Shown here piece by piece: positions 6,517 through 52,474 of a stretch of 64,000 nt of DNA. The translations under genes and the position numbers were made by a program. The DNA comes from an uncultured candidatus Brocadiaceae bacterium (lineage in GTDB: Bacteria; Planctomycetota; Brocadiia; SM23-32). The stretch's first letter is position 1, and every line of letters starts with the position of its first letter. The notes beneath the pieces were generated by a model. It saw nothing but the letters and a program-made list of their open reading frames with translations, had not been told where the DNA came from and made no database searches. The DNA is taken from positions 20,985 through 84,984 of the forward strand of contig CAYSWA010000003.1 in the NCBI GenBank assembly GCA_964434535.1. Direction: 5' to 3'.

Positions 6517-7603
6517 CGGCCAGCACCTTGCTCAGTGTCTCCAGGAAGAAGTAGTCGCCCCACATGACGCTCTCGTCCACGCCGAGCCCCTTGCGCTCGT
6601 GGTAGATGGCATGCTTGAGCACGCCCTCCCAGCCGGGCGTCTCGACGGCGAGGAACTGCGGCGTGCAGAGCGTGGCGAGGATGCGCAGCGCGTAGTCGCG
6701 GTATCGCCCGCCCGCTTCGCCGAGCATCTCCGAGAGCCTCCACATCCCGCCGGCGGCCACGGCGGCGGCGGACGACTCGTAGGGGAGGGCCGGATCCGGC
6801 TCGTCCCAGTCGTTCGGCGGCACCCCGTGGGCGCCAGTCCGCTCGATGTAGTAGTCGGCGCAGCGGCGGGCCGTCTCGAGCAGGCGCGCGTCGCCGCTGA
6901 AGGAGTAGGCCGTCCCGAACCCGTAGACCGCCCATGCCTGTCCGCGCGCCCAGCACGAGTCACCGCGCCAGCCCTGGCGGGTCTGCTGGCGCAGGAACTC
7001 GCCGGTGCGCAGCGCGAAGATGCCCTCGTGGGCCGTGCTCCCGTCCCCGCGCACCAGCCGGCGCCGGGTTGTCCGGCAATGCTGATCGGCGATGCGCCGG
7101 AGGGCCTCGTCGCCGGCCTGCTCGGCGGCGTAGAAGACGATCCCCACGTTCATCATGATGTCGATAAACAGGCTCTGCTCGCCGAGGAAGGAGCAGAGGT
7201 ATCCGCCCGGTTCCTGGAAGCGGAGGGCGAGGGTGCGGCCGGCCTCGACGACGACCCGGCGCGTGCGCTCCTCGCCGGTCAGGTCGTGCCAGCGCTTCCA
7301 GGTCGGCCAGAACAGGAAGCCGAGGTCGTGCACCGAGCGGTCGGCCTTGCGCGGCTCGATCAGGCGCGAGCAGCGCTCGGCCTGCCGGCGCCACCACTCC
7401 TCGCCCGTGCGCTCGTAGATGAGCCAGAGCTCGCCGCCGAGGAAGCCCTCGCACCAGTTGGTCCACCGCTCGCCCTCGTGGCGCCACCGGCCGCAACGGC
7501 TGTAGGTGGGGAAGAAGCCGGGGTGGCGCTCGACGAGCCGGCGCACCTGCCCGGCGGCGAACTCGAAGGCGCGCGCGGCCCGCTGCCTGAAGTCCTCGGC
7601 CAT
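6506..7603 (-). CDS. unsaturated glucuronyl/rhamnogalacturonyl hydrolase, GH88/GH105 family
   Basis: [20 protein letters not shown] and [10 protein letters not shown] motifs are typical of GH88/GH105. Confidence 0.8.
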
Positions 7604-7694
7604 CCTCTCCTCCCGCTGCGTTCCGGCCGGCCATCTTACGGGCGCCGCGAGAGGCCGTCAACGCGGGCTGGCGCCGACCCGTAGCACAGGCCCC

Positions 7695-8900
7695 CTACGG
7701 GCGCCAGATGGTGCCGTCGGGCAGGCGGCTCACCGTCCAGGTGGGGTTGGCCTCGTCGGCGGGGAACCTGGCGGCCAGCTCCTCGTCGAACTCGATCCCC
7801 AGCCCCGGCCGGTCGTTGGGGTAGGCGTAGCCTTCGCGCACCTCGGGCATGCCGGGGAAGAGGTCCCGCTCGGCCTGGCCGCGGCGGCTCCACTCCTGCA
7901 CGCCGAAGTTGTGGCAGGCCAGGTCCAGGTGCACGTTGGCCGCCATGCCGACCGGCGAGACGTCGCCCGGCCCGTGCCAGGCCGTGCGCACGCCGAACGC
8001 CGCGCACGTGTGCGCCAGCTTAAGCGCCGGCGTGATGCCGCCGATCTGGGAGACGTGCACGCGGATGAAGTCGATGAGCCGCTCGGCGATGATCGGCGTC
8101 ATCTCGCGCGGGTTGTTGAACAGCTCGCCCATGGCGATCGGCGTGGCGCAGACGGCGCGGATCTGCCGCAGCCAGTCCAGGTCCTCCGGCGCCACCACGT
8201 CCTCCAGGAAGAAGAGGCGGTAGGGCTCGAGCGCCCTGGCCAGATAGACGGCGTCGATCGGGGCGAGGCGCTCGTGCACGTCGTAGAGCAGCTCGACCTC
8301 GTCGCCGAGCTCGGCCCGCAGGTAGTCGAAGAAGTCGGGGATGCGGCGGACCTTCTCGCGGGGGTCGAAGTAGTCGCCGGGCGGGGCGCCTTCGGGACGC
8401 GCCATGTCCGCCCCTTCGGTCCCCGGGTAGCCGCCGAGCTGACAGCGCACGTAGCGGAATCCTTCGGCCATCAGCGCCTCGGCCCGTTCGGCCACCGCGC
8501 GGGGCTCGGGGCCGTCGGCATGGACGTAGACGGCCGCCGCCGGCCGGCACGCCCCGCCCCAGAGCCGGTAGCAGGGCATCCCGGCCAGCTTGCCCAGGAT
8601 GTCCCAGAGCGCCATGTCGACCCCGCTGATGGCGTTGTTGAGCACCGGCCCGTTGCGCCAGTAGCCGTTGACCATGGCGCACTGGTAGATGTCCTCGATG
8701 TCGCGCGGGTCGCGTCCGACGACGAAGGGGCCGACGTGGCCGTCGAGCGCCGCCTTCACCGCCAGGTGGCGCTGGGTGAACGTGGCGCAGCCGAGGCCGT
8801 AGAGCCCGTCCTGGTTGGTGAGCACGCGGACGACGACGAGGCGGGCGCGGCCGGGCTGGGTGACGGTTGTGCGGACCTCGGCGATCTTCAGCTCGCTCAT
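7695..8900 (-). CDS. enolase-superfamily D-mannonate/galactonate dehydratase (ManD/RspA-like)
   Basis: Mandelate racemase/muconate lactonizing enzyme fold motifs (KIAEVRTTVT..., LLYDVHERL, FFLED, HGPGDVSPV). Confidence 0.85.
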   Translation of the reverse strand: MSELKIAEVRTTVTQPGRARLVVVRVLTNQDGLYGLGCATFTQRHLAVKAALDGHVGPFVVGRDPRDIEDIYQCAMVNGYWRNGPVLNNAISGVDMALWDILGKLAGMPCYRLWGGACRPAAAVYVHADGPEPRAVAERAEALMAEGFRYVRCQLGGYPGTEGADMARPEGAPPGDYFDPREKVRRIPDFFDYLRAELGDEVELLYDVHERLAPIDAVYLARALEPYRLFFLEDVVAPEDLDWLRQIRAVCATPIAMGELFNNPREMTPIIAERLIDFIRVHVSQIGGITPALKLAHTCAAFGVRTAWHGPGDVSPVGMAANVHLDLACHNFGVQEWSRRGQAERDLFPGMPEVREGYAYPNDRPGLGIEFDEELAARFPADEANPTWTVSRLPDGTIWRP

Positions 8901-45810: not shown

Positions 45811-47037
45811 CTACGCCCCGAACTTGTCCAGCAGCCCCGCGTTCGCCAGCATCAGCGGCAGCAGGTACATCGCGCGGAAGATCCCCAGCCCGCCCGCGTT
45901 GCACTCGGTCTCGGTGAAGCGCAGCCGCCCGTCCGAGCCCGAGCGCGGCGAGTGCAGCAGCAGCGGCACCGGATGCCAGCTATGCAGCTTCATGGGGCAG
46001 GGGGTGGAGTGGTCGCCGGTGACGGCCAGCACCTCCGGGCCGCCCTCCATCAGCATGGGCAGGGCGGCGTCGACCGCCTCGATGGCCTCCACCTTCCGCT
46101 CGTGCGCGCCGTCCTCGCCGGCCTCGTCGGTCGGCTTGACGTGGATGAAGAAGTAGTCGTAGTCCTCGCGGCGGTCCAGGAAGGTGCCGAACTCCTCCTC
46201 GATCGACTGGCCCGTGTCCAGCAGGTCCATGCCGACCAGGCTCGCCAGGCCGCGATACATGGGGTAGGTCGCGATCGCGCCGCAGCGCATCCCGAAGCGC
46301 TCCGGCACGCCGGCGATGTCCGGCCGCTGGCTGATGCCGCGCGTCATGACGCCGTTGATCGGCTCGCCGCCGCTCAGGGCCTGCTGCGCCTGCCGGACGA
46401 ACTGGTTGACGATCCGCGCCGTCTTCTCGGCGGCCTCGGTCTCCGGCTCGGCCTCGTGGAGCGGCTCGCCGTCCTGGTGGGGGTCGGTGTCGGTGACGCC
46501 TTCGGCGAGGCCGGGGCCGCGGAAGATGACGCCGAAGCGGTGCCCCTTGCCGGCGGCCATGATGACCTCGACGTCCTCGATGCGCCCGATCTTCTCCTGG
46601 AGGCGCTTCACCTTCTCGGCGCTGACCTCGGTCTCGGGTCGGCCGGCGCGGCGGTCGGTCACGATGCCGTTCTCGATGGTGCAGAAGTTGGCCCGCGCGG
46701 CCACGTCGCCGGGCTTGAGCGGCATGCCCATGCCGACCACCTCCATGACGCCGCGCCCGATCTCGACCCGGCGCGGGTCGTAGCCGAACAGCCCCAGGTG
46801 GGCCGGCCCGCTGCCGGGCGTGATGGCGTAGTCGACGGGGAGGATGCGCCCGAGGGCGCTCCTGGCCGCCAGGGCGTCCAGGTTCGGGCACTGGGCCTCT
46901 TCCAGCGGCGTGCGGAAGCCGTTGTCCGGGTGGCGGATGTCGCCCACGCCGTCCATCACCAGCAGCACCAGCTTCTTGCCGCTCTCGCGGACTTCGTGGC
47001 GCTTGACCAGCTCCTCGGCGATCTTGATGCCGTGCAT
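45811..47037 (-). CDS. apgM: cofactor-independent phosphoglycerate mutase, archaeal-type (ApgM)
   Basis: LLVMDGVGD, ITPGSGPAHLGLFGYDP, GDHSTP motifs of the apgM family. Confidence 0.85.
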   Translation of the reverse strand: MHGIKIAEELVKRHEVRESGKKLVLLVMDGVGDIRHPDNGFRTPLEEAQCPNLDALAARSALGRILPVDYAITPGSGPAHLGLFGYDPRRVEIGRGVMEVVGMGMPLKPGDVAARANFCTIENGIVTDRRAGRPETEVSAEKVKRLQEKIGRIEDVEVIMAAGKGHRFGVIFRGPGLAEGVTDTDPHQDGEPLHEAEPETEAAEKTARIVNQFVRQAQQALSGGEPINGVMTRGISQRPDIAGVPERFGMRCGAIATYPMYRGLASLVGMDLLDTGQSIEEEFGTFLDRREDYDYFFIHVKPTDEAGEDGAHERKVEAIEAVDAALPMLMEGGPEVLAVTGDHSTPCPMKLHSWHPVPLLLHSPRSGSDGRLRFTETECNAGGLGIFRAMYLLPLMLANAGLLDKFGA

Positions 47038-47078
47038 CGGTGCGGTTCTCCCTGGGGATGGCCTCCGGGGGAAAGGCC

Positions 47079-47107
47079 ACTATAGCCCCGCCGCGCGGGG
47101 CTGTCAA
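47079..47107 (-). promoter_or_regulatory. sigma70-like promoter TTGACA-N17-TATAGT (minus strand) for apgM
   Basis: rc(47102-47107)=TTGACA, rc(47079-47084)=TATAGT. About 42 nt upstream of the ATG at 47037. Confidence 0.5.
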
Positions 47108-47117
47108 AGCAGCGGGC

Positions 47118-47171
47118 GGCGACGGCGTGGAACCGCAGATGAACGCGGATAGACGCGGATTGCGGCGCGGG
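47118..47171. repeat. 54-bp iteron-like repeat R1 (GGCGACGGCGTGGAACCGCAGATGAACGCGGATAGACGCGGATTGCGGCGCGGG)
   Basis: Identical 54-mer at 48699-48752. Contains three 10-bp-phased direct repeats (CGCAGATGAA / CGCGGATAGA / CGCGGATTGC). Abuts the apgM promoter. Confidence 0.7.
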
Positions 47172-47293
47172 GCAGGCAGTGGCCAGTACGCGTTTGGAGG
47201 TTCTTCTCCCCATGGTTTGCCGTTCTCAGCGTTCTCTGCGCGAGCCAGACCGCAACGGCAGAGCAAGAGCATGAGCGAGATGGAGGGCCGTCA

Positions 47294-47329
47294 CTTCATC
47301 CTTCATCCTTCCCCTTCATCCTTTCCTCC
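47294..47329. repeat. pyrimidine-rich heptamer tandem repeat (CTTCATC)x3-4
   Basis: CTTCATCCTTCATCCTTCCCCTTCATCCTTTCCTCC in the 5' region of the gene starting at 47391. Confidence 0.6.
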
Positions 47330-47390
47330 GCGTGCTTTGCGGTGAAGATCGCCGTTGCGTTGGGGCGTCTGTTTTGCTCAGATGGGCGAT

Positions 47391-48647
47391 ATGAGCGAGA
47401 CGACGACCGACGCGATCACCGATGCCGAACGGACGGTCCTGCGGGGGCTGGCCGAGCGCGTGCGCGAGATCGCGGCGCTGCCGGTGATGGAGGAGCGCCG
47501 CCGGATCTGGAAGCGCCACAACGCCCTCCGGCCCGGTCGGCCGATGGTCCTCGTCTTCCCCGAGGGCGCCTGGGGCGAGCTGCTGCCCGGCTCCGAGCTG
47601 GCCTGCGAGGGCGAGCTTGCCCGCTCCTTCGAGCGGGACCTGCGCAGCCGCATCTTCTACCACGAGCGGCTCCAGGACGATACGGTCATCGAGGACGCGC
47701 TCGTCATCCACAAGGCCGTGCGCAGCAGCGGCTGGGGGCTCTCCCCGCGCTACATCCCCAGCACCGAGGAGCGCGGCGCCTGGGCGTTCGATCCCGTCCT
47801 GCACGAGCGCTCCGACCTGGCGAAGCTCCACGCCCCGGAGATCAGCGTCGATGAGGAGGCGACCGCCCGCAGGCTCGAGATCGCCGAGGACCTCTTCGGC
47901 GACATCCTCGACGTGCGCCTCAAGGGCGTCGACCACGTCTCGTTCCACCTGACGAGCCAGCTCTGCAACCTGCGCGGGCTGGGGAACGTGATGATGGACA
48001 TGGCGGCCGAGCCGGGCTTCGTCCACGAGGCGATGGCGATCCTGGAGGAGGGCAACCGCGGCCTGGTCGAGCAGTACCGGGCGCTCGACCTGCTCAGCCT
48101 CAACAACGACGGCACCTACCACAGCTCGGGCGGGGTCGGGTATACGGACGAGTTGCCGCGCGAGGACTTCGACGGGCGCGTGCGGCCGTGCGACATGTGG
48201 GCATCGGCCGAGTCGCAGGAGCTGGCCCAGGTCTCGCCGGCGATGCACGCAGAGTTCGCCCTCGACTACGAGAAGCGGCTGCTCGCCCCGTTTGGGCTGA
48301 ACGGCTACGGCTGTTGCGAGGACCTGACGCGCAAGCTCGACGACGTGCTGGCGATCCCGAACATCCGGCGCATCTCGATCGCGCCCTCGGCCGACGTGGC
48401 GGCCTGCGCCGAACGGCTCGGCGGGCGCTGCATCTTCTCCTGGAAGCCGAAGCCTCAGTATCTGGTGGGAGAGTTCGCGCCGGAGAGGATACGCGCCGAC
48501 ATCCGGCGCACGATCGAGATCGCGCAGGCCAACGGCTGCGTGCTGGAGATGATCCTGAAGGACACGCACACCTGCGAGGGCCGCCCGGAGCGCTTCACCG
48601 CCTGGACCCGGATCGCCCGCGAGCTGGTCGAGGGGGCCTCGCGCTGA
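47391..48647 (+). CDS. hypothetical protein (possible URO-D/methyltransferase-like TIM-barrel enzyme); function unassigned
   Basis: 418 aa, protein-like composition. Weak resemblance to the uroporphyrinogen-decarboxylase-family fold. Start at MSETTTD. Confidence 0.5.
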   Translation: MSETTTDAITDAERTVLRGLAERVREIAALPVMEERRRIWKRHNALRPGRPMVLVFPEGAWGELLPGSELACEGELARSFERDLRSRIFYHERLQDDTVIEDALVIHKAVRSSGWGLSPRYIPSTEERGAWAFDPVLHERSDLAKLHAPEISVDEEATARRLEIAEDLFGDILDVRLKGVDHVSFHLTSQLCNLRGLGNVMMDMAAEPGFVHEAMAILEEGNRGLVEQYRALDLLSLNNDGTYHSSGGVGYTDELPREDFDGRVRPCDMWASAESQELAQVSPAMHAEFALDYEKRLLAPFGLNGYGCCEDLTRKLDDVLAIPNIRRISIAPSADVAACAERLGGRCIFSWKPKPQYLVGEFAPERIRADIRRTIEIAQANGCVLEMILKDTHTCEGRPERFTAWTRIARELVEGASR

Positions 48648-48698
48648 CCGCGCGGCTGACGTGGCCGACGGGGACGACCCCCCGCGGCCTCAAGCCAC

Positions 48699-48752
48699 GG
48701 CGACGGCGTGGAACCGCAGATGAACGCGGATAGACGCGGATTGCGGCGCGGG
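48699..48752. repeat. 54-bp iteron-like repeat R2 (identical to R1)
   Basis: Exact 54-nt match to 47118-47171. Downstream of the 47391 gene and upstream of GH4. Confidence 0.7.
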
Positions 48753-48818
48753 CAACGGCGGAGATGCTGGCAGCCGTCAACCGAGAACCGATAACTGACA
48801 ACCGCCGTTCCCGCCGTC

Positions 48819-48858
48819 ATCCGTGATCTGCGTGTATCTGCGTTCATCTGCGGTTCCC
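48819..48858. repeat. inverted diverged partial copy R3 of the iteron repeat
   Basis: rc = GGGAACCGCAGATGAACGCAGATACACGCAGATCACGGAT, about 85% identical to the R1/R2 core. Again three ATCTGCG-type 10-bp repeats. Confidence 0.6.
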
Positions 48859-48945
48859 TCCGACTCCCCGGCACGTGCGGGGGGCGGGCCGCGCAGTTAT
48901 CCTGTGCATCCCTGTTACCCGCGCCGTTTGCCCGCGAGGTGAGCC

Positions 48946-50295
48946 ATGGCTGACGTGAAGGTGGCCCTGATCGGCGCCGGGAGCCGCAGCTTCGGCCCCG
49001 GCACCGTGCGCGACGTGCTGCTGAGCGAGCCCCTCCGCGAGCGGGGCGTCGAGCTGGCGTTGATGGACATCAGCAAGAAGCACCTGGCCGACTCGGCCGA
49101 CTACGCCCGCCGGGCCGCCGAGCGGCTCGACCACCCCGCCCGGATCACGGCCACCACCGACCTGTGCGAGACGCTGGACGGGGCCGACTTCGCCGTCGCC
49201 GCCATCGAGGTCGACCGCTTCCTCTACTGGGCGATGGACTTCCACGTGCCGCGCAGCCACGGCTTCCGCCAGGTCTTCGGCGAGAACGGCGGCCCCGGGG
49301 GCATCTTCCACGCGCTGCGCAACATGGGGCCGATGGTCGAGATCGGGCGCGCCATGGAGCAGCTCTGCCCCGAGGCCGTGCTGCTCAACTTCACCAACCC
49401 GGAGCACAAGCTCTGCGAGGCGCTCACCCGCCTGAGCTCGACCCCGACCGTCGGCCTCTGCCACGGCTACTTCATGGGCCGGGAGCAGCTCGCGCGCATA
49501 CTCGCGGTGGAGCCCGAGGAGCTGGACGCCGTCGCCTGCGGCATGAACCACTTCACCTGGTTCCAGTCGATCCGCGACCGGGCCAGCGGGGAGGACCTCT
49601 ACCCCCGGCTGCGCGAGGCCGAGCGCGAGGGCGAGTGGCTGCACGACTGGCACGAGATCGCCCTGGCCCGCGTGCTGCTGCGCCGGTTCGGGCTCTGGCC
49701 CTCGCCGGCGGCGAACCACTACGGGGAGTACATCGGCTGGGCCGAGGAGTTCGTCGCCGACGAGATGCAGTTCTTCTACGACCCGGCCGAGGGGCAGCCG
49801 TGGGAGACGGGCGAGGTGCCCGAGTTCGTCTACTCCCTGAGCCAGGGCCCGCACCAGCGCTCCTGGCGCCGGCCCGCCGATGCCACGCCCGTGGAGGACG
49901 ACGAGACACCCCTGAAGCCCTCCGGCGAGCTGGCCGTGCCGATCATGGAGGCGCTCGCCTGCGGCCTGGAGCGTGACCTGCCGGCGGTCAACGTGCCGAA
50001 CAAGGGGACGATTCCCAACCTGCCCGACGACATGGTCGTCGAGGTGCCGGCCACGGGCGACGCCGAGGGCCTGCACCCGGTGCAGTGCGAGCCGCTGCCC
50101 GAGCCGATCGCGGCGATGCTCCGCGTGCAGGCGAGCATCCACCGGCTCATCGTCGAGGCATTCGCCGAGGGCTCGCGCGACAAGCTGATCCAGGCCGTGC
50201 TGCTCGACCCGGTCGTGGACGGCTACCGCCGGGCGGTCGAGATGGTGGACGAGATGCTCCGGCTCCAGGCAGACATCCTGCCGCCGCTGGGTTGA
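48946..50295 (+). CDS. glycoside hydrolase family 4 (NAD+/Mn2+-dependent alpha-glucosidase/galactosidase-like)
   Basis: KVALIGAGSRSFG Rossmann N-terminus, NFTNP, CHGY, GMNHFTWF motifs of GH4. Confidence 0.85.
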   Translation: MADVKVALIGAGSRSFGPGTVRDVLLSEPLRERGVELALMDISKKHLADSADYARRAAERLDHPARITATTDLCETLDGADFAVAAIEVDRFLYWAMDFHVPRSHGFRQVFGENGGPGGIFHALRNMGPMVEIGRAMEQLCPEAVLLNFTNPEHKLCEALTRLSSTPTVGLCHGYFMGREQLARILAVEPEELDAVACGMNHFTWFQSIRDRASGEDLYPRLREAEREGEWLHDWHEIALARVLLRRFGLWPSPAANHYGEYIGWAEEFVADEMQFFYDPAEGQPWETGEVPEFVYSLSQGPHQRSWRRPADATPVEDDETPLKPSGELAVPIMEALACGLERDLPAVNVPNKGTIPNLPDDMVVEVPATGDAEGLHPVQCEPLPEPIAAMLRVQASIHRLIVEAFAEGSRDKLIQAVLLDPVVDGYRRAVEMVDEMLRLQADILPPLG

Positions 50296-50540
50296 GGGCG
50301 GCACGCCTTCGGCCGCAGAGCGGGCAGGGGAAGGCCAGCAGCAGGTTGAAGGCGGGAGGATGAGGGACGAAGTGACGGCTTCCCGCTCGTCCTCGTCGTG
50401 GTTCTTCTCGCCGTCTTCGGTGACCTGCGAGCCTCCGTGGTGAACCACGCCGCCGCCGGGGCGTATAGTTGCGCCGGGCGCGCCGGTGCGCCAGAATGGC
50501 GGGGCTGGCCTGATCCCATCTGAGCGAAGAGATAGGCGCG

Positions 50541-51902
50541 ATGAGAGGCGAGCTGCTCGAGCTGTGCCAGAAGCTGCCGGCCGACTACGCCGAGGTGCGC
50601 GTGCAGGAGGGCACGTCCACCAGCATCCAATACGCGGGCCGGGAGCTGGAAGACATCGGCGAGCGCACCGGCCGGGGCGGCTGCGTCCGCGTGCTCAAGG
50701 ACGGCGGCTGGGGGTTCGCCACGTTCAACGACCTGGGCCGCATCGAGCAGTACGCCCGCATGGCGCTGCGCCAGGCGGAGCTGGTCCAGGGCCACCCGTT
50801 CGGGCTGGCGCCGGTCGAGCCGGTGCAGGCGACGTACCGCACCGAGGTCGAGTGCGACCCGGCCGACGTGCCGCTCGAAGAGAAGCAGCGGATGTGCCAC
50901 CGCTACAACCGGGCCATCCTCGCCAACGAGCGCGTCCAGACCAGCATCGTCGTCTACCGCGACAGCCGGGCGAGCACCTACTACGCCAACTCCGACGGGG
51001 CCTGCATCGAGCAGCAGTACGCCTTCTGCGGGGCGCTGGTCGGGGCGATCGCCGTCGAGGGGGCGAACATCCAGCGCGCCTTCGAGTCGGTCGGCGACCT
51101 GCGCGGCTACGATAAGGTGGCCGCGATGGACGAGGACTGCGAGAAGGCCGTGCGCCGGGCGGTGGAGTCCCTGGAGGCCAGGCCCGTCGAGGCCGGCGCC
51201 TACACCGTGATCGTCGACCCCAGGCTCTGCGGCGTCTTCGTCCACGAGGCATTCGGGCACCTGAGCGAGTCGGACTTCGTCTACGAGAACCCGCGCCTGC
51301 AGGAGATCATGAAGCTCGGGCGGCGCTTCGGGCCGCAGGTCCTCAACATCACCGACGATGGCTCGATGGCCGGCGAGGCCGGCTTCGTCGCCTACGACAG
51401 CGAGGGCGTGCCCGGCTCGCGCACGCCCCTGGTCAAGGACGGCGTCCTGGTGGGCCGCCTGCACAACCGCGAGACGGCCGCCAAGATGGGCGAGGAGCCG
51501 ACGGGCAACGCCCGCGCCATCTCCTACCGCCACCAGCCCATCGTGCGCATGACCAACACCCTCATGGAGCCGGGGGAGACGAGCTTCGAGGAGATGCTCG
51601 CCGAGACCCCGGACGGCATCTACGCCGTGGGCATGCTCGGCGGGCAGACCAACATGGAGATGTTCACCTTCAGCGCCGAGGAGGCATACCGCATCCGCGA
51701 CGGCCGGGTCGCCGAGAAGGTCCGCGACGTGGTCCTGACCGGCAACGTGTTCAAGACGCTCCAGAACATCGACCGGGTCGGCAGCGACTTCAAGATGCAC
51801 GGCGGCCTGGGCGGCTGCGGCAAGGGCGGCCAGAGCCCCCTGCGGGTCGGCGACGGCGGGCCCCACTGCCGCATACGGGACGTGGTCATCGGCGGGCGGT
51901 GA
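50541..51902 (+). CDS. tldD: TldD-family zinc metalloprotease
   Basis: HEAFGH zinc motif, GGxGxC-containing C-terminus (GGLGGCGKGGQ). 453 aa. Confidence 0.9.
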   Translation: MRGELLELCQKLPADYAEVRVQEGTSTSIQYAGRELEDIGERTGRGGCVRVLKDGGWGFATFNDLGRIEQYARMALRQAELVQGHPFGLAPVEPVQATYRTEVECDPADVPLEEKQRMCHRYNRAILANERVQTSIVVYRDSRASTYYANSDGACIEQQYAFCGALVGAIAVEGANIQRAFESVGDLRGYDKVAAMDEDCEKAVRRAVESLEARPVEAGAYTVIVDPRLCGVFVHEAFGHLSESDFVYENPRLQEIMKLGRRFGPQVLNITDDGSMAGEAGFVAYDSEGVPGSRTPLVKDGVLVGRLHNRETAAKMGEEPTGNARAISYRHQPIVRMTNTLMEPGETSFEEMLAETPDGIYAVGMLGGQTNMEMFTFSAEEAYRIRDGRVAEKVRDVVLTGNVFKTLQNIDRVGSDFKMHGGLGGCGKGGQSPLRVGDGGPHCRIRDVVIGGR

Positions 51903-51955
51903 TCCGCTCGTCCTCGTCGTCGTCCTCGTTCTCGTCCTCGAAGGCGAGAGGGATC

Positions 51956-52474
51956 ATGCTGGACCACGAGAAACTGGATGTCTACCAGGCGGAACTGCGA
52001 TTCATGGCGTGGACCAACACGCTCCTTAACGAGCTGGAGGGGGGCTGTGCGCGAAGCGTTGCGCACATTGTCGATCATCTGCGACGAGCCAGCCTGAGCG
52101 CGCTGCTGAACACGGCCGAAGGCAACGGGAAGCGACAGAGGCCCGTGCGTGCGCGGTTCTTCGACGACGCGCGGGGTTCCGCCGCCGAGTGCGCCGCCTG
52201 TCTGGACGCACTTGTCAGCATCAGCGCCGTGGACGCCGGACGCGTCGCAGAGGGGAAGGACCTGGTTGTCCGCATCGTTTCCATGCTGACGAAGCTCGTA
52301 AGCCTTTACTCAGCGCGTCAGGGTCGAGTGCGGGAGAACGGTGCCCCGTACGATCTGGATGCCGAATGCCTTGCCCATGTGGACGCGGCTGGGCCGGCAC
52401 GGCTGGACGAGGACGACGACGAGGACGACGACGAGCGGGTCAACTCACCTGATTCCCGTGGAAGAAGGCAATGA
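51956..52474 (+). CDS. four-helix-bundle protein (23S rRNA intervening-sequence / Avd-like family) with acidic C-terminal tail
   Basis: Starts MLDHEKLDVYQ (family N-terminal pattern), about 120-aa helical core, then DEDDDEDDDE tail. GAGAGGGA RBS. TGA overlaps the tldE ATG (ATGA). Confidence 0.7.
   Translation: MLDHEKLDVYQAELRFMAWTNTLLNELEGGCARSVAHIVDHLRRASLSALLNTAEGNGKRQRPVRARFFDDARGSAAECAACLDALVSISAVDAGRVAEGKDLVVRIVSMLTKLVSLYSARQGRVRENGAPYDLDAECLAHVDAAGPARLDEDDDEDDDERVNSPDSRGRRQ

Follow-up and report, generated by a model that had tools for sequence, protein, structure and literature searches.

Repeats around an uncharacterised gene

The window, the whole 64-kb stretch of DNA that was analysed, carries a minus-strand apgM gene, an uncharacterised gene at 47391-48647, a GH4 gene, tldD and pmbA. 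An Rfam search at gathering score found no rRNA and nothing else in the window, and positions 46500-49500 gave nothing relevant in Rfam 15 at E <= 5. Two copies of a 54-mer, at 47118-47171 (R1) and 48699-48752 (R2), match with 0 mismatches, which none of 100 shuffles reproduced, and the identity in fact extends over 55 nt (Table 1). R1 and R2 are direct repeats 1581 bp apart, and R3 is inverted with respect to both. The 37-nt arms at 48710-48746 and 48821-48857 are 86% complementary with 74 nt between them, and in the fold a weaker pairing reaches outwards to about 48694 and 48872; R1 on the plus strand and R3 on the minus strand are likewise 86% complementary, with the uncharacterised gene between them. 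Each copy holds three CGCRGAT cores with a period of exactly 10 bp (47134-47160, 48715-48741 and, on the minus strand, 48826-48852); the identical pair, the inverted copy and the phased triplet described in the first-pass annotation are all real. The two-unit pattern was matched six times in the window against 0.05 expected, and a profile derived from 243 arrays of other loci detected only these three arms in the 64 kb (E 5e-10 to 2e-9), the next best match having an E-value of 0.9.

Table 1. Coordinates of the repeats, the hairpin and neighbouring features in the window
Feature	Position	Strand	Remarks
R1, solo left arm	47117..47171	+	Three decamer units; 100% identical to R2 over 55 nt; without functional partner arm
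R2, left arm of complete ORF-less element	48698..48752	+	Assigned by comparison with L210, L215 and protein N-termini
Loop/interior of ORF-less element	48753..48820	+	Self-pairs internally (fold); without detectable nuclease ORF remnant
R3, right arm	48821..48872	-	Three ATCTGCG units and GGTTCC terminus
Whole ORF-less hairpin, R2-loop-R3	48694..48872	+	Between stop codon of gene 47391-48647 and conserved GH4 leader
apgM promoter-like site	47079..47107	-	TTGACA-17-TATAGT; context only, outside element
Solo arm of IVP-type cassette	50383..50399	+	17-mer identical to 51904-51920; between GH4 and tldD
Sister cassette, PF05635 (23S rRNA-IVS protein, S23p) ORF between inverted arms	51900..52474	+	Pfam E 7e-13

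R2 starts 51 nt past the uncharacterised gene's stop codon (48647), on the strand of that gene, and together with R3 it forms a hairpin of about 175 nt. When folded as RNA this segment has a dG of -107 kcal/mol (z -7.45), and none of 200 shuffles was as stable, whereas the region around R1 (47105-47345) shows no excess stability (z +0.53). R1 also lies in a divergent spacer, which is an exception to the placement of its family. As the first-pass annotation had stated, it begins 10 nt beyond the -35 hexamer of the apgM promoter, a site that matches at 11 of 12 positions (1 site against 0.1 expected) and is kept in the relative L187. An intrinsic terminator was considered and rejected, as no U-tract follows the stem and there is no terminator-like site in 46900-49000.

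This proximity, the exact 10-bp period of three direct repeats and the position of R2 and R3 upstream of GH4 had been taken as signs of an iteron or operator array, at which a shared regulator would co-ordinate apgM, the uncharacterised gene and GH4; the candidates would be a response-regulator, IclR-type or Rep-like protein. It had also been suggested that the repeats are remnants of an element that delivered the module at 47391-50295.

Presence and absence in related genomes

The relatives are Planctomycetota MAGs. In one relative with 75% identity the order of the uncharacterised gene, GH4 and TldD is kept without any repeat. Four related lineages were examined; the uncharacterised gene is found upstream of tldD/pmbA in each, GH4 is adjacent or nearby in three, and no array was found in the 12-17 kb available for L187, L188, L206 and L207. 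In L187, the closest relative, the homologous 120-nt spacer between the uncharacterised gene and GH4 has no hairpin, and both the apgM promoter and the GH4 leader are retained without an array. The proximal GH4 leader is conserved and lies outside the hairpin, and the GC content shows no break across 47391-50295. The repeats at this locus are a lineage-specific insertion.

Since gene order is kept in a relative without the repeats, they did not deliver the module. The alternative of a composite element, bounded by R1 and R3 as inverted ends, which brought in the uncharacterised gene, or the whole of 47391-50295, draws on their complementarity across that gene, on the identity of R1 and R2 as direct repeats, on the same succession of left arm, gene, left arm and right arm around a nuclease ORF in L223 (see below), and on a parallel around tldD, where a solo arm at 50383 precedes the cassette at 51900. 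The conserved gene order, the four related loci without arrays, the uniform GC content and the intact GH4 leader make it very unlikely. The repeats are better understood as remnants of an element in a narrower sense, as the arms of a cassette that has no ORF, and to this extent the suggestion of element remnants was correct.

A second cassette of the same build, with an S23p ORF, is present in the window. Its arms (51900-51937 and 52405-52442) are 38 nt long and 87% complementary, and the point of insertion is precisely the tldD stop codon, while the cassette ends at the start codon of pmbA. A 17-mer of this IVP-type arm has three matches in the window against 0.07 expected. L188 and L206 have nothing inserted at the tldD-pmbA junction, which in L208 holds a GxxExxY pseudogene.

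A dispersed family of decamer arrays

Three CGCRGAT units at a 10-bp period were found in at least 120 stretches of genome contigs, from about 15 bacterial phyla and from archaea (Methanosarcinales, Methanoperedens and Methanobacteriota among the matches listed). In viral contigs the core gave 65 array stretches, compared with 8 for the reversed core and 4 for the shuffled core. The outer end TT-RR-C-CGCRGAT is shared by arrays at more than 180 unrelated loci in bacteria, methanogenic archaea and viral contigs. Arrays of this kind are absent from E. coli. Positions outside the search pattern are also conserved, with C at -1 in 79% of the arrays and T-T-R-R upstream, and an A precedes the internal units in about 80-84%. 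The decamers that make up the arrays are not palindromic, near-identical copies of the arrays occur within one genome, and the flanks of the copies are rich in T on the 5' side and in A on the 3' side. A subfamily-specific 20-mer had only two matches in metagenomes, both by chance and in coding DNA, and no paper was found when exact array strings were searched in the literature.

The arrays are predominantly intergenic (135 of 148) and lie mostly just 3' of genes, with a distance from host stop codon to array of mostly 1-20 nt. Arm pairs are convergent in 43 cases and divergent in 6, and solitary arrays between co-directional genes are in sense orientation in 39 cases against 16. Placement between divergent genes is rare, and no arm pair was found there among the array loci. 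Family members fit closely between cistrons, frequently with 5-20 nt to the neighbour on either side. When all ORFs of 120 of these genome loci were clustered (gene calls were crude, being the longest ORFs filtered on GC3), no DNA-binding, regulator, transposase or RAYT gene recurred as a neighbour. The neighbours are housekeeping genes, among which no integrase recurs, and the ORFs between distant inverted arm pairs are ordinary genes with no transposase; an origin by transposase was rejected on these grounds.

These findings bear directly on the regulatory reading. The same array with the same termini occurs beside unrelated genes in different phyla and domains, no regulator gene recurs near it, it lies mostly at the 3' side of genes, and the closest relative has kept the promoter and leader and lacks the array. 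In addition, the nuclease cassettes described below account for the units, which form their terminal repeats and the 5' end of their coding sequence, and the 10-bp phasing follows from terminal inverted repeats being built of tandem units. A locus-specific operator shared by apgM, the uncharacterised gene and GH4 is consequently extremely unlikely. At the level of the family the repeat is generic and not tied to promoters, which is the outcome that the first-pass annotation had itself named as refuting its proposal.

The intercistronic placement could instead reflect selection by the host on an RNA element, be it a terminator, a 3'-end stabiliser or an RNase III site, which sets the ratio of the transcripts of the uncharacterised gene and GH4, with the cassette origin being incidental. 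The exceptional stability of the stem and the tight fit of family members between cistrons would suit such a role, as would the fact that RNase III cuts IVS stems built in the same way (PMC4990558). The stem has no U-tract behind it, however, L187 lacks the hairpin in its homologous spacer, and the solo arm R1 cannot form the structure. Selection at the RNA level was not apparent in the stems either: counts of G-U against A-C mismatches in the arms (34 vs 52, p 0.07) gave no bias to the sense strand, many of the arm mismatches are unpaired transversions, and differences in folding stability between the strands did not correspond to gene orientation. We consider this explanation unlikely.

The family consensus ATTTAAC...GTTAAA is loosely like the core sites RYYYAAC and GTTRRRY of integron attC; the window copy has GGAACC and GGTTCC. 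Likenesses to 16S helix 45, the 23S/5.8S 5' region, Chi, uptake sequences, CsrA and C/D boxes were discarded as post-hoc similarities of 7-9-mers.

GxxExxY nuclease genes between inverted arrays

GxxExxY proteins (TIGR04256 / PF13366, PDDEXK_3) are minimal PD-(D/E)XK nucleases of about 125 aa, and the family comprises 28,872 clusters at 50% identity. PDDEXK_3 is listed as a family without assigned function that occurs in Archaea, Bacteria and viruses and has undergone multiple transfers (Steczkiewicz 2012, PMC3424549). In L208, a planctomycete relative, about five copies of the hairpin lie within 1.06 kb, and one of the units contains an ORF (134-511) which belongs to TIGR04256 (E 2e-43) and PF13366 and whose start, ATG AAC GCA GAT GAA, is within the array. 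Nine GxxExxY loci were read as DNA, and in every one of them the gene stands between inverted arms. The arms are decamer arrays of the CGCRGAT/CRCRGAT type at seven of these (the group counted as seven is labelled L208:134, L017, L110, L210, L212, L215, L223 and L229), degenerate at one (L209) and a sequence variant at one (L208:7464). L223 and L229, which were picked without the MNAD N-terminus as a criterion, have arms of 41 nt with 100% and 31 nt with 94% complementarity, respectively, and in L223 a further left arm stands between the gene and the right arm.

At several loci the start codon is in the left arm or within about 10 nt of it and the stop codon abuts the right arm. In several cassettes the start codon and a leader of the form MNAD(E)RR are specified by the array units, with the result that the wobble base of an Ala codon is the R of the core. 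The odd N-termini of MNADERR type are thereby accounted for as translated repeat units. M[NDH][AT]D is present within the first 16 residues in 53 of 120 close homologues, and a broader regular expression for array-encoded N-termini matches 20 of 150 diverse representatives. The coding frame ATG AAC GCR GAT GAA accounts better for the enrichment of GAA/AAA spacers than do back-up stop codons in three frames (TGA, TAA), an idea that was dropped as GGA and GCA are also common.

The window copy shows this architecture without the gene. Its arms carry inverted decamers and outer ends of the cassette form (T/G)(T/G)RRC...GYY(A/C)(A/C), the termini GGAACC...GGTTCC being identical to those of the full-length cassette L215, and the R2-R3 element is in sense just downstream of a host stop codon. 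The inner edge of R3, GTGATCTGCG, matches the junction of stop codon and arm in full-length cassettes, where TGA runs directly into TCTGCG. Within R2, ATG AAC GCG GAT AGA CGC GGA TTG is a vestige of the coding sequence, which in these cassettes begins with MNAD(E)RRL. No GxxExxY ORF lies between the arms, and the profile had no match anywhere in a six-frame translation of the 64-kb window, so that a trans-acting nuclease in this organism is conjectural. An intermediate form is seen in L033, with a 171-nt hairpin and an ORF remnant of 28 residues. Among loci ascertained by their arrays the ORF is present in only 3 of 185, and ORF-less copies could therefore also stem from repeated local deletion. 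Viral contigs yielded one GxxExxY locus only in the search for related loci, sequence searches of PADLOC, PHROGs and the PDB with the nuclease gave no match, and no paper tying a GxxExxY gene to these repeats was found in the literature searched.

Family membership, architecture, positions and presence or absence at conserved junctions are direct observations, and the explanation that covers them as a whole is that the 54/55-mer is probably the left terminal arm of a gene-less miniature derived from a GxxExxY hairpin cassette. The repeats would thus belong to what is apparently a small, selfish hairpin element distributed across many bacterial phyla and some archaea.

Comparison with known elements

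The closest known analogue is the intervening sequence (IVS) of 23S rRNA (S23p/PF05635; Coxiella, Leptospira, Salmonella). In both the IVS and the GxxExxY cassettes, terminal inverted repeats form a long stem around a small ORF, short tandem repeats lie in the 5' arm before or across the start codon, and decay of the ORF as well as ORF-less forms are found. In the Coxiella IVS the 5' arm has GACAGAT three to four times, in variable number; the IVS has been called selfish, its mode of movement is unknown, and RNase III excises it at the stem of its terminal inverted repeats (PMC4990558). The full-length relatives of the window element share this architecture and not the location, as IVS sit in helices 25 or 45 of 23S rRNA whereas the present arrays are in the intergenic spacers of mRNAs, after stop codons. 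The cargo also differs, being a four-helix-bundle protein in the IVS and a PD-(D/E)XK nuclease here, where the repeat unit is a decamer.

REP/REPIN-RAYT systems resemble the arrays in being short extragenic inverted doublets (hairpins) and singlets at the 3' ends of genes, with genome-specific subfamilies tied to one small, repeat-flanked protein gene. They are made of small palindromes with a GTAG head and depend on a Y1/HUH transposase, while the arms here are tandem arrays around a PD-(D/E)XK nuclease gene; neither GTAG-head palindromes nor a neighbouring Y1 RAYT gene was found. REPs are moreover lineage-specific, and the decamer core is common to phyla and domains. MITEs (Correia/NEMIS, RUP, Nezha) likewise lack an ORF and retain the terminal inverted repeats that a longer, coding element carries, and both they and the present elements are 70-220 nt long and inserted between genes. 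The window element has such inverted repeats and the small ORF-less size; no target-site duplication and no DDE transposase parent were found, and its autonomous partner is only about 0.5 kb long. No direct repeat flanks the four L152/L159 copies or those of L210, L215 and L223; the boundaries of the window copy are blurred by divergence from L187. The extragenic doublets and singlets, and the near-identical copies within a genome, could also come from a conventional REP/REPIN or IS-derived MITE family that is moved by a RAYT or DDE enzyme, is unrelated to GxxExxY and encloses nuclease genes by chance. With no transposase or RAYT recurring near the arrays or between distant arms, no target-site duplication, and an ORF between the arms in all nine loci, in several tied to them by its start and stop codons in a way that chance nesting does not account for, we find this highly improbable.

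Free-standing homing endonuclease genes are comparable in that they too are small nuclease genes of sporadic, horizontal distribution which lie between conserved genes and need host transcription. Known examples have neither inverted arms of tandem repeats nor abundant ORF-less copies, and in this the GxxExxY loci differ. Iterons and OmpR/PhoB-type operators likewise repeat a 7-bp core in direct orientation once per helical turn, which is found here as three units at 10 bp. There is no single origin or regulon to match, neither an origin nor a regulator being present, and the arrays are dispersed over many phyla, where they lie 3' of unrelated genes.

Proposed mechanism and implications

A full-length cassette is about 0.5 kb long and consists of an arm of 2-5 tandem decamers of the form [RRM]CGCRGAT with the outer end TT-RR-C, the nuclease ORF and the same array in inverted orientation. 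In several copies the array units supply the ATG and the first codons (MNAD-E/K/G-R-R/G); in others the ATG is just inside the arm, and in some the right array starts at the stop codon. Placed in sense a few nucleotides past a host stop codon, often inside operons, the cassettes are presumably transcribed by read-through. Copies without the ORF persist as long hairpins or as solo arms, and in the window R2 and R3 are one such hairpin in the spacer between the uncharacterised gene and GH4, with R1 a solo arm.

For mobility, past or present, we infer that the nuclease acts on the arms and that copies arise by cut-and-repair in a homing-like manner and not by DDE transposition. To our knowledge, a lone PD-(D/E)XK hydrolase cannot perform strand transfer by itself. 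An exact pair of filled and empty sites from near-identical genomes was not obtained. In transcripts, the stem of about 50 bp may act as an element of dsRNA processing or stability, by analogy with the 23S rRNA IVS.

As a tentative extension, GxxExxY genes with inverted decamer-array ends may be ultra-small autonomous selfish cassettes (about 0.5 kb) in both prokaryotic domains, sister to the S23p cassettes, whose nuclease recognises the phased CGCRGAT arrays, or their cruciform or hairpin form, and brings about their spread through cutting and repair. The hairpins and solo arms without an ORF that occur in their thousands at gene 3' ends, those in the window included, would then be non-autonomous progeny of the cassettes. 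We regard this as possible rather than probable. No description of such a class of cassettes was found in the literature searched.

For the locus itself a false regulatory lead is removed, as co-regulation of apgM, the uncharacterised enzyme and GH4 cannot be read from the phased repeats. The repeats also present hazards for annotation, in the form of false N-terminal extensions, spurious small ORFs and breaks in assembly. The decamer array is conserved from cyanobacteria to methanogens, and the abundant intergenic hairpins break metagenome assemblies. Three things that are apparently unlinked in the literature searched, namely the decamer array, the intergenic hairpins and the GxxExxY / PDDEXK_3 family, are here connected. 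This suggests that the 23S rRNA IVS is a special case of a wider group of hairpin-borne small-ORF cassettes which usually reside between protein-coding genes and, if the cassettes are indeed autonomous, the GxxExxY family would gain both a role and a cis-acting site.

Structure of the window repeats

The two direct copies of the 54-mer, R1 and R2, agree without mismatch, exact identity extending over 55 nt, and the shuffled window never gave a match. R3 is an inverted partial copy, and each copy carries three CGCRGAT cores at a period of exactly 10 bp; the two-unit CGCRGAT pattern was matched six times in the window against 0.05 expected. The exact pair and its inverted partner are as described in the first-pass annotation, as are the surrounding genes and the start of R1 just beyond the -35 hexamer of the apgM promoter. 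A profile of 243 arrays (tandem CGCRGAT decamers) from elsewhere matched only these three arms across the 64 kb. The 100% identity of R1 and R2 over 55 nt implies a recent duplication or gene conversion.

R2, a 68-nt interior and R3 form a stem-loop (RNA dG -107 kcal/mol, z = -7.45), and none of 200 shuffles was equally stable. Folding of the R1 region gave no excess RNA structure (z +0.53), and R1 is therefore a solo arm. As no GxxExxY ORF remains anywhere in the 64-kb window, R2-loop-R3 is an ORF-less copy of the cassettes described below. R2 can be read as ATG AAC GCG GAT AGA CGC GGA TTG, a relic of an MNAD(E)RRL 5' coding end, and the inner edge of R3, GTGATCTGCG, agrees with the stop-codon/arm junction TGA/TCTGCG of the L210 cassette.

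L186, a Logan short-read contig (public run SRR7048218) encoding an identical GH4, starts inside R2 (L186 1-140), where the 55-nt repeat may have broken the assembly. A third inverted pair, containing GGATGAAG repeats, brackets the 418-aa gene and GH4; by a rough estimate about 0.01 such pairs are expected by chance in 6 kb. The pair may be what is left of a related element's arm after decay.

Features of the window and of the GxxExxY loci (E, E-value; a slash within sequence marks an arm junction)
Feature	Position	Strand or location	Details
apgM	45811-47037	minus	
Promoter-like site TTGACA-17-TATAGT	47107-47079	minus	R1 starts 10 nt beyond the -35 hexamer
R1, R2 (54-mer)	47118-47171, 48699-48752		Exact 55 nt: 47117-47171, 48698-48752
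418-aa gene	47391-48647		No Pfam match
R2/R3 arms	48710-48746 / 48821-48857		Inverted, 37 nt, 86% complementary, gap 74 nt
R2-R3 stem-loop	~48694-48872		
Third inverted pair	47287-47312 / 50354-50379		GCCGTCACTTCATCCTTCATCCTTCC / GGGAGGATGAGGGACGAAGTGACGGC; 26 nt, 88% complementary
GH4	48946-50295		TldD and PmbA downstream
Solo 17-mer CCGCTCGTCCTCGTCGT	50383-50399		Identical to S23p left arm, 51904-51920
S23p ORF (PF05635, '23S rRNA-intervening sequence protein')	51899-52474	exactly between tldD stop and pmbA start codons	E 7e-13
S23p cassette arms	51900-51937 / 52405-52442		Inverted, 38 nt, 87% complementary
L210		between gspE and gspF	GGAACCGCAG/ATGAACGCAGATGAACGCAGAT...ORF...TTCTGA/TCTGCGTTTATCTGCGTTCATCTGCGGTTAA
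L215			Termini GGAACC...GGTTCC, same as window
L212			Same architecture
L110			Same architecture; CACAGAT variant
L017			Same architecture; five units left, two or three right
L209			Degenerate arms
L208 pseudogene	7264-7735	between tldD and pmbA	Variant arms TAACCACAACGACAC...GTGTCGTCGTGGTTAA
L223			Arms 41 nt, 100% complementary
L229			Arms 31 nt, 94% complementary

Cassettes encoding a GxxExxY nuclease

The planctomycete contig L208, read for synteny of the 418-aa gene, has about five copies of the hairpin within 1.06 kb. These are tandem units of ~125 bp at the contig end (L208 1-1063), one of them with a GxxExxY ORF. The start of this 125-aa ORF is encoded by the array (...GGGAACCGCGG ATG AAC GCA GAT GAA CTC..., giving MNADELN...), and the next bases, GAACTTAAC, are common to the ORF unit and its hairpin-only neighbours, as would be expected if the latter were internal-deletion derivatives. 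An intermediate was found in L033, where a 171-nt hairpin retains 28 residues of the ORF. The L208 protein belongs to TIGR04256 'GxxExxY' (E 2e-43) and also to Pfam PF13366, PDDEXK_3.

Every GxxExxY gene for which DNA could be obtained was surveyed, giving nine loci, two of which (L223 and L229) were picked for proteins lacking the MNAD start. Inverted flanking arms were present in all nine and CGCRGAT-type decamer arrays in seven, the remaining two being degenerate (L209) and a sequence variant (the L208 pseudogene). As the arms of this pseudogene differ in sequence, subfamilies keep one architecture with differing arm sequences. The window element belongs to this family and has its architecture.

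Among 120 close homologues, M[NDH][AT]D occurs within the first 16 residues of 53 and an MNADERR-type N-terminus in 24. Diverse representatives begin (E)PQ(M/I)NADERR, corresponding to CCG CAG ATG AAC GCA GAT GAA CGC AGA, so that this N-terminus is the array read in frame; the R of CGCRGAT is the third, wobble base of the Ala codon. The family comprises 28,872 clusters at 50% identity (E <= 1e-3; 10,828 at E <= 1e-10), and among the matches listed many close homologues lie on contigs of ~0.5-2 kb. The sole functional statement found for PDDEXK_3 is 'Unknown; Prokaryota and viruses; multiple transfers' (PMC3424549), and no paper tying the GxxExxY family to repeats was found in the literature searched.

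Distribution and placement of the array

When one genome per species was scanned for three CGCRGAT units repeating every 10 bp, at least 120 stretches were obtained. The matches listed include Chloroflexota, Planctomycetota, Acidobacteriota, Cyanobacteriota, Verrucomicrobiota, Nitrospirota, Gemmatimonadota, Latescibacterota, several classes of Pseudomonadota, Desulfobacterota, NC10, Spirochaetota, Chlamydiota and Lentisphaerota, and among archaea Methanosarcinales, Methanoperedens and Methanobacteriota. IMG/VR held 65 stretches with the array, against 8 for a reversed and 4 for a shuffled core. This spread across many phyla, archaea and viral contigs argues against the initial reading of the repeats as a local operator or iteron array. 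Arbitrary 10-bp triplets do occur, and the CGCRGAT triplet is enriched 8-16x over control cores. Positions outside the search pattern are also conserved, with 79% of arrays having C ahead of the first unit and 79-84% having A ahead of inner units; spacers are chiefly GAA or AAA, with T-T-R-R upstream. None of 5,426 complete E. coli genomes carries the array, and cultured-phage records lack it as well; it has no Rfam model, and no paper matching the exact array strings was found. Nostocales plasmids carry it unannotated.

All figures in this paragraph are based on crude gene calls made in this analysis. Of 148 arrays, 135 were intergenic. Arm pairs were convergent in 43 cases and divergent in 6, often occupying the entire spacer to within 5-20 nt of each flanking gene. 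The pairs lay between co-directional or convergent genes, and none was found between divergent genes. Solitary arrays between co-directional genes were mostly in sense (39 vs 16) and mostly began 1-20 nt past the upstream stop codon. Within one genome or contig, copies are near-identical including their loops and have different flanks. No recurrent protein family of at least 80 aa was found beside arrays, and the ORFs lying between distant arm pairs were ordinary genes. On the sense strand, arm mismatches were not biased towards G-U (34 vs 52), and many were transversions; strand-specific hairpin stability was independent of gene orientation. These measures therefore give no evidence of selection on RNA pairing.

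In a Wenzhouxiangellaceae chromosome (L050 5391-6597), a 309-bp unit with one hairpin is repeated 3.9 times in tandem between two genes (92% matches). Some IMG/VR contigs classed as viral (L150, L152/L159, L166, L176) have 4-7 hairpin copies, each exactly between a stop and the next start codon with ~5 nt on either side. Nostocales of different genera carry arrays at orthologous sites within larger conserved palindromes (L014 3580-3700 / L029 7750-7860; L204 / L205 1440-1580), with four units versus three and CGCAGAT decayed to CACAGAT in Anabaena cylindrica; these copies are old and not strongly constrained.

Synteny and the neighbouring S23p cassette

In the relative L187 (75% protein identity) the order is apgM, three extra glycan-active genes, then 418-aa gene - GH4 - TldD - x - PmbA, and the 13 kb of this locus hold no array. 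Its 120-nt spacer between the 418-aa gene and GH4 aligns with the window in the GH4-proximal part, the hairpin being extra in the window, and the apgM promoter is kept while R1 is missing. The 418-aa gene also lies upstream of tldD/pmbA in L188, L206, L207 and L208, and GC content is flat over the module (47391-50295). Since gene order is conserved without the array and GC is flat, the repeats arrived after this order was set. The suggestion that they are remnants of an element that delivered the module was right in kind, the window holding an ORF-less hairpin copy, but delivery itself is contradicted, as the module predates the repeats.

Homologues of the 418-aa protein number more than 3,300 (top matches 65-75% identity); it falls into no Pfam family and has no sequence relative in the PDB. 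Planctomycete relatives keep its gene upstream of tldD/pmbA, amid GH4, GH5, GH38, sulfatase and GDSL genes, and the protein looks like a conserved, uncharacterised glycan-related enzyme family. Just 5' of GH4, TATCCTGT(G/C)CATCCCTGTTACC (48897-48919) is kept in L187 (7311-7343), which has two tandem copies of TATCCTGTC; this motif, and not the 54-mer, is the candidate GH4 promoter/operator.

A sister cassette fills the tldD-pmbA junction, where arms made of short CGTCCT/CGTCGT units surround an S23p ORF, the left arm beginning at the tldD stop codon. With the solo 17-mer, tldD has a direct arm copy on either side, just as the 418-aa gene has R1 and R2. A solo arm 5' of the host gene and a full element 3' is a recurring geometry in the window. 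In L188 and L206 nothing is inserted at this junction, and in L208 it holds the GxxExxY pseudogene, a pattern of presence and absence at one conserved site.

Comparison with known systems

The cassettes share their architecture with the Coxiella 23S IVS, a 428-nt element described as selfish, which has three or four GACAGAT tandem units (variable) just 5' of the ATG, is removed by RNase III, and whose means of mobility is unknown (PMC4990558). Unlike this IVS, they occupy mRNA spacers and their cargo is a nuclease. They behave like REPIN/RAYT systems and MITEs, but have neither a Y1 or DDE transposase nor a target-site duplication. We infer that the GxxExxY nuclease would mobilise the cassettes and that RNase III-type processing would act on the stem.
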